A stretch of 28,571 nucleotides of DNA from Candidatus Hermodarchaeota archaeon (GTDB taxonomy: Archaea; Asgardarchaeota; Lokiarchaeia; Sigyniarchaeales; SOKP01): NCBI GenBank assembly GCA_048885525.1, contig JBHLLP010000045.1, positions 1 to 28,571 of the forward strand, given 5' to 3'. The notes below the pieces were generated by a model. The model ran no database searches. It had not been told where the DNA came from and saw only the letters and a program-made list of their open reading frames with translations. Both the position numbers and the translations under genes were made by a program. This document shows positions 12,510-16,302 of this stretch, in pieces (the first letter of the stretch is position 1; every line of letters starts with the position of its first letter).

Positions 12510-12851
12510 TTATTTTAGAAAATCATTTGAATCAAAACGATAGGCGGCTCTAGTTAACCCAACATAATTATCAGATATTTTATAATAAAGCTTGCTGTTT
12601 ACGATCTTTTTTTGCAGATAATTATTTTTTATGTAGTGATTCAATGAAGACATCATAGTCCCAAGCGTGACTGATCCAATATACCCATGTTGCTTTTTTG
12701 TAACTCTTATTAACTCTAATTCTGAGTGCCAATGACCATCAAGTAGAGCAATTAGTATTTCATTTTTTATTGGAGTTTTGATATCCTTTATTTTATTGAA
12801 TAAATGTGAATAACTTGGTTTGTAAAATCTATTTTCATCAAAATTTTCCAT
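12510..12851 (-). CDS. Putative winged-helix protein
   Basis: Helix-helix-helix-hairpin pattern: IKNEILIALLDG-WHSELELIR...TLGTMMSSL...YLQKKIVNSKLYYKI. Confidence 0.55.
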   Translation of the reverse strand: MENFDENRFYKPSYSHLFNKIKDIKTPIKNEILIALLDGHWHSELELIRVTKKQHGYIGSVTLGTMMSSLNHYIKNNYLQKKIVNSKLYYKISDNYVGLTRAAYRFDSNDFLK

Positions 12852-14181: not shown

Positions 14182-14928
14182 CTATCCTAATAGAATTTTT
14201 AATGGAGTATACGTTGTCTCAGGAATAAAACATTCTCCATATTCGGCATTAATTTCATTTCCCCGTAGAATTGCAGTATCCTCAGCCCAATCTAGAACAC
14301 GTTCCAGAACTTCTTTTTGGGATATATAAACTTGATTAAAAATTTTTTTTTTTTCTTCCCAATAATCTTCAATATTCACTGTTACAAATACCGAGCCCTC
14401 AATATATTCGAATTTACACGATGGCGATTCATAGTAATAAACACCCAACGGAGTCCAACTTCTCTTATGACCTCCATATGCTTTACCAGATGAACAGTGA
14501 TATATTGCTTCCCTGGTAATTAATGATAAATTCCGATGTACGCGGTGGAAATCTGAATAATGAGGGATTAGGATTACTTGAGGTTTATAATCCCTTATAA
14601 GATTCGTAATTTGTGAGATTTTAGCTCTTTCAATTTGCATATCGAAGTAATTTAATTGAATAAACTCACAATTTAATATTGATCTTATTGATTTTAATTC
14701 ACCTTCTCTTTGCTGTTGAATAATTTCTTTATCATCATCTCTGGCATATCCTCCTAAGCCCGAAGTAGCAATAACTATAACAATTTCTGCTCCAAATTTT
14801 TGATATTTTAGAATGGTACCTCCACATGACACTAATTCATCATCGGGATGCCCAGCAAAAATCAACATCCGCTTAGGGACAATAATGGGAATATCATCTT
14901 CACATAATAATAAATTTTGATCAGACAT
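14182..14928 (-). CDS. PIG-L/LmbE family N-acetyl-sugar deacetylase
   Basis: AGHPDDELVSCGG metal motif, ATSG, REGE, IRDYKPQVILIP..DFHRVH (HxDH variant), C-terminal YGECF. ATG at 14928 (MSDQNL) preferred; 14967 is possible. Confidence 0.88.
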   Translation of the reverse strand: MSDQNLLLCEDDIPIIVPKRMLIFAGHPDDELVSCGGTILKYQKFGAEIVIVIATSGLGGYARDDDKEIIQQQREGELKSIRSILNCEFIQLNYFDMQIERAKISQITNLIRDYKPQVILIPHYSDFHRVHRNLSLITREAIYHCSSGKAYGGHKRSWTPLGVYYYESPSCKFEYIEGSVFVTVNIEDYWEEKKKIFNQVYISQKEVLERVLDWAEDTAILRGNEINAEYGECFIPETTYTPLKILLG

Positions 14929-15067
14929 ATAAGATAACACTCTAATTAAAATTAAAAATATTATCATATTGTTTTAAATAAAAATAATAGAATTTCTATA
15001 ATTGAACTAAATAAATTGCTAGTTGTCTAAAAAGATATTTGATAAAAAAGAAAAATTAAGAAAGTTC

Positions 15068-15763
15068 TTATTCTCCTCTCATTATTTTCTTTAAACGGTT
15101 CAATTCATCTAACATTTCATCTCGAAGTGAACCTAATCCACCCCCTGTTTTAGGAGCTACTGTGGGAGCAGCAGGAGCACCTCCACCTGGAGGTTTTGGG
15201 AGACTAGCACCTGGGGGTGCAGTTGGTCTTTTTGCAAATGCAGGAGCACTTGGAGGACTTACACTTGGGGGGCCACTGGGGGCTTTAGGTGGTCCACCGA
15301 CGGGAGCTTTTGGAGGAGCACCGCTTGGAGGTAATTTAGGAGCAGGTGGTAAACCAGGGCGTTTAGGTGGTCCTGATGATGGAGCACTAGGCAGCCCCGC
15401 TTTCGGGGCACTAGGTGGTCCTCCACTAATTGGTGGGGCAGGAGCACCAGCAATGGGCGGTGCAGGTACAGATTCAGGAGCTGCAGCACCTCCACCACTG
15501 CTTAATAAAGAGAATAATGTACTTGCCGCAGCAGTTCTAGCTCCTTGACTTGTTGGAACGACTATTTTTTTAGAGGAAGTACTAACAGTTTGAACTTCTT
15601 CAACAACAGAGACTTCTTTCAAATCTTTTTGAGCTTTAGCTAATGATTTAATAAAGTCGTTTATCCCTTTAACAGTCTCTTCTAGATCATCAGCCAGGGA
15701 AGTTAAACCCTTTTTCATAAAATTAATAACACGTTCAATTTTTTTCTGATCTTTTGAAACCAC
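15068..15763 (-). CDS. Coiled-coil + Pro/Ala/Gly-rich protein with C-terminal WH2-like amphipathic helix
   Basis: GTG start with upstream GAGGA. N-terminal heptad helix of about 50 aa, a low-complexity P/A/G/S tract of about 110 aa, and C-terminus GSLRDEMLDELNRLKKIMRGE. Confidence 0.8.
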   Translation of the reverse strand: MVSKDQKKIERVINFMKKGLTSLADDLEETVKGINDFIKSLAKAQKDLKEVSVVEEVQTVSTSSKKIVVPTSQGARTAAASTLFSLLSSGGGAAAPESVPAPPIAGAPAPPISGGPPSAPKAGLPSAPSSGPPKRPGLPPAPKLPPSGAPPKAPVGGPPKAPSGPPSVSPPSAPAFAKRPTAPPGASLPKPPGGGAPAAPTVAPKTGGGLGSLRDEMLDELNRLKKIMRGE

Positions 15764-16035
15764 GTTCTACTCAATTCCTCTAAAATTATTGAAAATTTGA
15801 TTAAAAATAAAATTACTAGTAATAATCTTTATATTTTAATTATATTAATATGTATTTATATTTTTATTCCATTCTTATTTGAATCTATATACCGAAATAT
15901 TACGTAAATCCAAAAAAACGTTAATTATTAAAAAACCTAAACTAATAATATTATATAACATATTTCATTAGTAAGTTTAAAAATTATTAAAAATTCAATT
16001 TTAAGATTGAAATGAATTAAAAAGGTTTGCAAAAA

Positions 16036-16302
16036 ATGCCTAAGCGAGAATTATTCATTAAACGGGTTTATGAAATTGTAAACGAACTTAAAATACCTTT
16101 AATTGACGAAAGAGTATATGATAAGGTTAATTTCAACACTGGAGCAGCTATTGCAACAGTAATTTTCAGATTTGAGGAAGACGAATCGGTTATCCGCGGA
16201 TTTTTAGGATTGGCTGAATATTTTCATACGGTGGTGGTCAAGCGTAAAGACGAATTTTTTATTCCTCATGCCTCTATATTATTCCGTTTGATAAGCGCTT
16301 AA
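16036..16302 (+). CDS. Hypothetical protein (88 aa)
   Basis: Clean ORF with globular alpha/beta composition, followed by a T-tract. ATG at 16036 preferred over TTG at 16027. Confidence 0.7.
   Translation: MPKRELFIKRVYEIVNELKIPLIDERVYDKVNFNTGAAIATVIFRFEEDESVIRGFLGLAEYFHTVVVKRKDEFFIPHASILFRLISA

Follow-up and report, generated by a model that had tools for sequence, protein, structure and literature searches.

The window analysed here comprises 28,571 nucleotides of contig JBHLLP010000045.1 (positions 1 to 28,571, forward strand) from assembly GCA_048885525.1 of a Candidatus Hermodarchaeota archaeon, which belongs to the Lokiarchaeia within the Asgard archaea. On its minus strand, the gene P0001 (15068..15763) encodes a protein of 231 amino acids, in the following called the tether protein. 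The open reading frame (ORF) begins with a GTG start codon behind a GAGG-like ribosome-binding site, ends with the stop codon TAA at 15068-15070 and is present as a single copy in its own genome. A Pro/Ala/Gly-rich tract of about 110 residues forms a local GC-rich island (0.43-0.58 GC, compared with approximately 0.30 around it). The tether protein ends in a strongly conserved amphipathic helix and belongs to an Asgard-wide family whose members join an anchoring segment through a proline-rich arm to a docking helix.

Conservation of the C-terminal helix

The last 25 residues of the tether protein (residues 207-231) are encoded at 15071..15145 on the minus strand, and the translation of this interval is exactly GGGLGSLRDEMLDELNRLKKIMRGE, which closes the ORF. 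Conservation was determined on an alignment of 25 diverse homologues that are 61-81% identical overall. In this alignment 20 of the 25 residues were invariant, located at residues 207-210, 212-218, 220-221 and 223-230, so that the conservation among homologues on which the first-pass annotation of this DNA had made its motif depend was indeed found. A word-indexed search of 5.8 billion proteins revealed 198 relatives with lengths of 200-247 amino acids, and all named sources are Asgard archaea.

Taken alone, the tetrapeptide 'LKKI' near the end of the 25-mer is at chance level and uninformative, since the six-frame ORFs of the AT-rich genome contain 28 occurrences of RLKK[IVLT] and 32 of a loose WH2 pattern. 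The whole 25-mer is far beyond chance.

To survey the phylum, 121 Asgard genomes were searched with a profile (A2) built from the last 32 residues. A looser form of the helix, h-x-x-L-R-x-E-M-L-x-E-L-x-R-L-K-x-h-h (h, hydrophobic residue; x, any residue), was matched in 98 of them, and the phylum-wide consensus reads h-x-x-L-[RKQ]-x-E-M-[LM]-x-E-[LIM]-x-[RK]-[LI]-K-x-h-h. In the soluble forms of the family, which are described below, L213, M217, E220 and K225 are invariant across classes.

Predicted structure of the tether protein

The structure was predicted with AlphaFold2 on the alignment of the 25 homologues, and the confidence is given as the mean predicted local distance difference test (pLDDT) score of 10-residue blocks. 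The C-terminal docking helix (residues 210-228; 15080..15136, minus strand) is predicted as one continuous amphipathic alpha-helix, with block means of 85 and 94 over residues 211-230. Because of this continuity, 'LKKI' is predicted to lie inside the helix and not in an extended segment after it. The hydrophobic face is made up of eight positions, namely 210, 213, 217, 218, 221, 224, 227 and 228.

The helix is preceded by a proline-rich arm (approximately residues 96-206; 15146..15478, minus strand), for which block means of about 43-62 and no secondary structure were obtained, as expected of a disordered segment. It holds repeats of the GPPKAP type as well as two conserved islands, NLPPAPKLPP and FAKRP, and its longest run of prolines is two residues. 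The alignment and the prediction thus bear out the earlier description of a conserved amphipathic helix at the end of a disordered, proline-rich tether.

Further upstream, the invariant segment AAASTLFSLLS (residues 76-88; 15500..15538, minus strand) is predicted as a short helix at low confidence, and a similar L-F/W-x-x-L motif recurs in distant homologues. The N-terminus is formed by a helix of 46 residues (residues 4-49; 15617..15754, minus strand; block means 80-95) whose sequence carries hydrophobic residues at a spacing of three to four, and which is presumed to be a coiled-coil or assembly head.

Gene neighborhood and the partner gene S91

Gene order was counted in 80 species-level loci of one family of the Lokiarchaeia, the family of the source genome. 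Downstream of the tether gene and on the same strand, a PIG-L family deacetylase gene (14182..14967, minus strand; Pfam PF02585, 8e-22) is an optional insert that was found in 52 of the 80 loci. It is followed by the gene of an actin-related protein, P0002 (12970..14091, minus strand; Pfam Actin 1.1e-87, 295 bits), which is a paralogue and not Lokiactin; an actin-family gene lies downstream of and co-directional to the tether gene in 76 of the 80 loci. The last gene of the co-directional row encodes a 113-amino-acid protein (12510..12851, minus strand) without a match in Pfam or among the PDB sequences, and it is kept in 72 of the 80 loci.

On the other side, and divergent to the tether gene, a conserved gene for a protein of 91 amino acids (S91; 16027..16302, plus strand) is located, again in 72 of the 80 loci. 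S91 is 72-100% identical across Loki loci and adjoins the soluble tether gene in several classes, where divergent, convergent and co-directional arrangements occur. It was detected in 46 of the 121 genomes and, bar one stray match, in exactly those families that have the soluble form of the tether protein; in families with the membrane-anchored form it was otherwise not found (e.g., in 0 of 11, 0 of 6 and 0 of 4 genomes). Among the genomic partners of the soluble form, S91 is the one whose conservation reaches deepest.

AlphaFold2 gives S91 an alpha-beta-beta-alpha-beta-beta-beta topology with a pLDDT of 86. No fold match could be assigned: Foldseek against the PDB returned E>=0.4, VIA-align returned Z<=4.4, and the atlas search gave only unrelated large proteins. 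We infer that S91 works together with the N-terminal head of the soluble tether protein, and it possibly does what the transmembrane anchor does in the other form. A paralogue of S91 is encoded elsewhere in the genome (C2:89996-90256).

An Asgard-wide family and the reuse of its helix

Two forms of the family can be distinguished. The soluble forms, with about 200-245 amino acids, consist of an N-terminal helix, a Pro-rich arm and the terminal helix, and they occur in the source order of the Lokiarchaeia, in an Odin-like genome of 1.4 Mb and in several further families. The membrane-anchored forms, with about 225-560 amino acids, begin with at least one N-terminal transmembrane helix, followed by basic residues, helical segments, a Pro-rich arm and the terminal helix. 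The basic residues behind the transmembrane helices suggest that the remainder of these proteins is cytoplasmic.

The membrane-anchored forms have conserved neighbors of their own. In nine loci from several Asgard families (L113, L115-L118, L120, L122, L123 and L125) they adjoin the gene of ribose-5-phosphate isomerase A (RpiA), and eight of the nine loci also hold genes for a PIN-ATPase-KH protein and a tRNA-splicing endonuclease. This neighborhood is a stable housekeeping gene order.

An hmmsearch of 1.84 billion representative sequences with the motif profile resulted in 66 matches, all named sources of which are again Asgard archaea. The helix is carried by proteins of very different architecture, among them a Ras-family GTPase followed by a Pro linker, the helix and a CPxCG...CCxC domain, a GTPase with a Cys-rich domain and the helix at the C-terminus, proteins with two to three tandem helices and then a zinc domain, and an LRV-repeat protein. 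A metagenomic protein of 549 amino acids (P0140) combines a transmembrane segment, a whole tether protein including the helix and, at the C-terminus, a TIR domain (Pfam TIR_2, 6e-18). A second carrier is encoded in the source genome itself (C7:98831-99340, plus strand); this protein of about 150 amino acids holds FLRDEMINELNNLKELI, followed by a zinc-binding-type domain of the CPxCG...CCxC kind. The latter domain was found in the source genome and all 20 other sampled genomes of family f1, and in 0 of 100 genomes elsewhere. Fusions of this domain to Ras-like GTPases are frequent in relatives.

Judged by the domain architectures of its carriers, which range from GTPase and zinc-domain proteins to LRV-repeat and TIR proteins, the helix behaves as a portable interaction module. 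The first-pass annotation had taken the C-terminus for an interaction motif, and this part of its claim agrees with the reuse of the helix on unrelated proteins.

In several Ras-like GTPase proteins the helix forms the very end of the chain. This position would also suit an amphipathic helix that binds membranes, either as a lipid anchor like that of MinD or FtsA or in place of the prenyl tail that small GTPases carry. Such a function is highly improbable. The net charge is near neutral and the acidic residues D215, E216 and E220 are conserved, the invariance at the level of single residues is unusual for lipid-binding helices, and the helix is also found on proteins that already have a transmembrane anchor and at internal positions in front of the zinc domain.

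Comparison with WH2 and VASP tetramerization motifs

The first-pass annotation had read the C-terminus as a WH2-like motif; in a true WH2 motif, the helix and LKK(T/V) would bind G-actin in the canonical two-part way. There, a helix half with the pattern R-x-x-h-h-x-x-h is followed by a flexible spacer of about 5-8 residues, usually with a Gly (WASP, WIP, thymosin), and then by LKK(T/V) in extended conformation. The helix half of this comparison stands: R214-x-x-M217-L218-x-x-L221, read as R-D-E-M-L-D-E-L, carries the hydrophobic residues at i, i+1 and i+4, appears phylum-wide as M-[LM]-x-E-[LIM], and is followed by L-K-K and a hydrophobic residue. As in the WH2 proteins (PF02205; WASP, WAVE, WIP, thymosin-beta4, Spire), the motif is located behind a proline-rich region; its gene also neighbors an actin-family gene.

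The second half of the motif differs. N222 and R223 are the sole residues between L221 and L224, which leaves a spacer of two residues instead of five or more; there is no helix-breaking Gly, and a single continuous helix is predicted. Outside the close Loki relatives, the LKK(T/V) signature is replaced by LKSI, LKEI, LKAL, LKTL, LKRL, LREI, LRGI, LKQI or LQEI. The second Lys of LKKI is unconstrained (K/S/E/A/T/R/Q/G), I/L/F/Y stand in place of T/V at the fourth position, and the signature of the wider family is L-[KR]-x-[ILFY]. The tether protein has additional invariant residues (I-M-R/K-G) without a counterpart in WH2, and LKK[IVT] is common by chance in the genome.

The profile comparison proposed in the first-pass annotation yielded no match to Pfam WH2 (PF02205) or VASP_tetra (PF08776) at E<=10, neither with fragments of the tether protein nor with 13 phylum-wide members, under HMMER filters that discard many weak matches. 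Pfam and NCBIfam together gave nothing above noise for the whole protein, its fragments and the same 13 members. When the motif profile was compared with the PDB sequences at E<=10, no WH2 or MIT-interacting motif (MIM) chain was matched, only generic ELxRLK coiled coils; this set lacks chains shorter than 20 residues. A search of the ESM Atlas with the helix alone gave no usable match. At the sequence level, the WH2 reading is largely refuted, and binding of G-actin as a true WH2 motif appears very unlikely.

The same annotation had offered a VASP-like tetramerization helix as an alternative. The missing match to VASP_tetra and the length of the helix (19 residues compared with about 35-45) do not support this assignment. 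More generally, the helix could pair with itself as a short coiled coil and thereby oligomerize or cross-link its carriers, as the VASP tetramerization domain does. The eight hydrophobic positions form a wide face of the a/d/e/g type, the invariant pair E220 and K225 has the i to i+5 separation of a g-e' salt bridge, and both the near-identical helix on unrelated proteins and the existence of tandem copies would be expected of, or at least compatible with, a self-recognizing module. Against such pairing, about 19 residues (2.5 heptads) are short for an autonomous coiled coil, most genomes of the source family hold only one or two carriers, and the N-terminal helix of 46 residues already offers oligomerization. 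We regard self-pairing as improbable.

One homologue, from an Odin-like genome (G041, locus L111, 3797-4444, plus strand), matched CCDC53, a subunit of the WASH complex, with E=0.013 and 16 bits at a cut-off of 24.6. This sub-threshold match was not trusted and probably reflects coiled-coil composition.

Comparison with ESCRT-III tails

A MIM was the other alternative considered in the first-pass annotation. The C-terminal tails of Asgard ESCRT-III proteins have been described as MIM1-like (PMC7240154). The ESCRT-III proteins of the source genome end in EKIAELEKELNRLKSDE and DQLKDEIEKLRKELQG, and further tails were collected from ten other Asgard genomes. These tails share the pattern h-x-x-[ED]-h-x-x-L-K, to which M217, E220, L221, L224 and K225 of the tether protein fit. 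The MIM1 spacing L(4)...L(8)..L(11)-K/R(12) is reproduced by M217, L221, L224 and K225, with E220 at position 7 as in the Asgard tails, and like a MIM1 helix the docking helix is amphipathic and located at the extreme C-terminus behind a flexible linker that contains prolines. In one genome (G105) the two ends look alike, with KELDRLKKFMSEQQ in the tether protein and AELEGLKKKMSEDKQ in the ESCRT-III tail.

In a comparison by hhalign, the helix alignment matched the ESCRT-III tails with P=6.7e-4 (class A) and P=3.1e-3 (class B). Only 0 of 200 and 1 of 200 column shuffles, respectively, reached or exceeded the real score, and reversed sequences scored lower. When the helix profile was run over the source genome, an ESCRT-III tail ranked 6th of 8688 ORFs. 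The reciprocal search, with tail profiles that were built without the source genome, failed: the class A profile does not list the tether protein and the class B profile ranks it 443rd.

Thus, the spacing and the profile similarity above shuffled controls speak for the MIM alternative and the reciprocal search does not. The strict eukaryotic consensus (D/E)xxLxxRLxxL(K/R) is not matched by the tether protein, in which R214 occupies position 1 and E220 position 7, but by two unrelated ORFs of the source genome. Coiled coils of a generic type, for example the DC-SIGNR neck and an M-like protein, also show the pattern E-h-x-x-E-h-x-+-L-K, and the invariant residues L213, L218, I227/M228 and G230 have no counterpart in ESCRT-III. 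The tether protein lacks a Snf7 core, its helix is longer and more hydrophobic than that of ESCRT-III, and the co-occurrence of the helix with Snf7 does not discriminate. No link between ESCRT gene clusters and the tether gene was found. In the genome G075, a distance of 9-15 kb separates the tether gene from the ESCRT-III genes, and it is filled by unrelated genes (RNA methyltransferase, TauE, PfkB, ProRS, LarA). The MIM reading of the helix is weak. Docking of the helix to an MIT domain, whether in Vps4 or in some other protein, would make the family an ESCRT/Vps4 adaptor, but it is unlikely in view of these sequence comparisons.

A possible covariation of the variable position K226 with the ESCRT-III tails was dropped because 6 matches in 10 genomes compared with about 3.8 expected, and because lineage-specific K/R and I/L usage would confound it.

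The source genome encodes a Vps4 with a MIT domain (C26:27984-29222). It is located in an ESCRT cluster (C26:26000-31000, locus L127) together with EAP30/Vps22-36, Vps25 and ESCRT-III genes, in which Vps25 has an extra N-terminal coiled coil and a Rab-like GTPase gene follows directly downstream. A PfkB kinase gene adjoins this cluster, and another lies close to ESCRT-III genes in a distant Asgard genome (L152).

A probable tethered docking helix and its candidate receptors

For the family as a whole, a tethered docking helix is the probable mechanism. The anchor would fix the tether protein at a site, either a membrane or an assembly containing S91, by means of an N-terminal transmembrane helix or of the soluble helix paired with S91. 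The proline-rich arm would then let the terminal helix sweep tens of nanometres, and the helix would bind by packing as an additional helix into a hydrophobic groove on its partner, which should be common to nearly all Asgard archaea.

Because the partner must be near-universal, three local candidates were rejected as the general receptor. S91 is present in 46 of the 121 genomes, in the families with the soluble form, compared with 98 for the helix. The paralogue group of the neighboring actin-related protein was found in a class-wide survey only in families f1 and f2 of the source order, and the CPxCG...CCxC zinc domain only in family f1.

As a tentative first guess, the receptor could be a hydrophobic groove of the actin fold. 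It would be that of Lokiactin and, in the source family of the Lokiarchaeia, perhaps also that of the actin-related protein two genes downstream, so that the tether protein would link or deliver actin to the site of the anchor. The helix would dock as arcadin-2 does on crenactin and as the WH2 helix half does on actin, but it would not be a member of the WH2 family. The lead is given by the gene order in the source family, by the precedent of arcadin-2 and by R214-x-x-M217-L218-x-x-L221, which is kept across the phylum and matches the WH2 helix half. In addition, the distribution of the helix and its degree of conservation parallel those of Lokiactin, which has been reported in all Asgard classes (PMC9834061). 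In the class-wide survey, the actin-family scores fell into Lokiactin (about 440 bits; 39 of 41 genomes), the paralogue group of the neighbor (about 290 bits) and two further groups. No Lokiactin gene was found in the source assembly, which is 99% complete.

Several observations weigh against an actin receptor. Only one family has the actin-related gene beside the tether gene: in the sister family, the tether and actin-paralogue genes are 70 kb apart or on different contigs, and the other sampled orders of the class have no match in the score range of the paralogue. The adjacency may reflect an inherited gene order, and a stable gene order alone is weak evidence, because the membrane-anchored forms keep equally stable housekeeping neighbors. 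Every sequence test for WH2 failed, both with Pfam and with the motif profile against the PDB, and the hydrophobic face of eight positions would also suit a helical bundle. For a published Lokiactin co-immunoprecipitation from L. ossiferum (PMC13716822), the main text lists profilin, gelsolins, an ARF GTPase and BAR proteins. A tether protein of this kind is not among them, which is weak evidence. Loki profilins were reported not to bind VASP polyproline (PMC8410842). For this reason, and with no Pro run exceeding two residues, a VASP-like role of the arm in feeding profilin is doubtful.

What probability is not taken up by the actin fold, MIT domains, self-pairing, lipids and canonical WH2 binding belongs to a receptor that has not yet been considered.

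Comparison with known systems

A helical docking motif on a disordered tether is a familiar kind of design. A close likeness on the archaeal side is arcadin-2 of Pyrobaculum, whose conserved C-terminal helix behind an unstructured linker binds a hydrophobic groove of crenactin (PDB 5LY3) and whose gene lies in the same cluster as its actin homologue (PMC5173319). The tether protein shares the conserved C-terminal helix, the unstructured linker and, in one family, the nearby actin-family gene. It differs in that binding of arcadin-2 relies on a Trp that is absent from the tether helix, and in that the tether proteins, with their long Pro-rich arm, extend over the whole Asgard phylum and are encoded next to an actin paralogue in one family only. 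The likeness is one of design, with no evident sequence relationship; the 17-residue arcadin-2 peptide is among the short chains missing from the PDB set used.

A similar likeness exists to Ena/VASP, WASP/WAVE and Listeria ActA, in which a module for oligomerization or membrane anchoring is likewise joined with a long proline-rich region and a short binding helix at the terminus. In the tether protein no EVH1, FAB, CA or tetramerization domain was detected, and its runs of proline are short. The resemblance is one of design and not of ancestry.

Significance

A search for the motif string did not find it in the literature searched. The published 'WH2-like' motifs of Asgard archaea are four-residue linkers inside gelsolins (PMC9433394; 2025 bioRxiv preprint of PMC13716822), the Asgard actin-side adaptors in the cited literature are profilins and gelsolins only, and a survey of ESCRT proteins in Asgard genomes does not mention the tether family (PMC11188069). 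As far as we can tell, the family is undescribed. The finding that the helix is not a WH2 motif averts a premature claim of WH2-type nucleation factors that predate the eukaryotes.

Asgard archaea build a dynamic actin cytoskeleton and an ESCRT system, and the phylum, across which the helix is conserved, matters for the origin of eukaryotes. As far as we know, no component described so far connects these machines with membranes or with the numerous small GTPases of Asgard archaea. Since it is present in most Asgard genomes and is built like eukaryotic scaffold proteins, the tether protein is a concrete candidate for such a link. The helix may, speculatively, be a pre-eukaryotic, Asgard-wide module that couples membranes, by way of transmembrane anchors or S91 assemblies, and Ras-like GTPases to a universal hub, either Lokiactin or the MIT domain of Vps4. 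If this were true, S91 and the coiled-coil head would form a new two-protein anchor. With Vps4 as the hub, the network of MIM-MIT contacts would be wider than ESCRT-III; with Lokiactin as the hub, the tether protein would be the missing archaeal membrane-to-actin linker or an actin-delivery factor.

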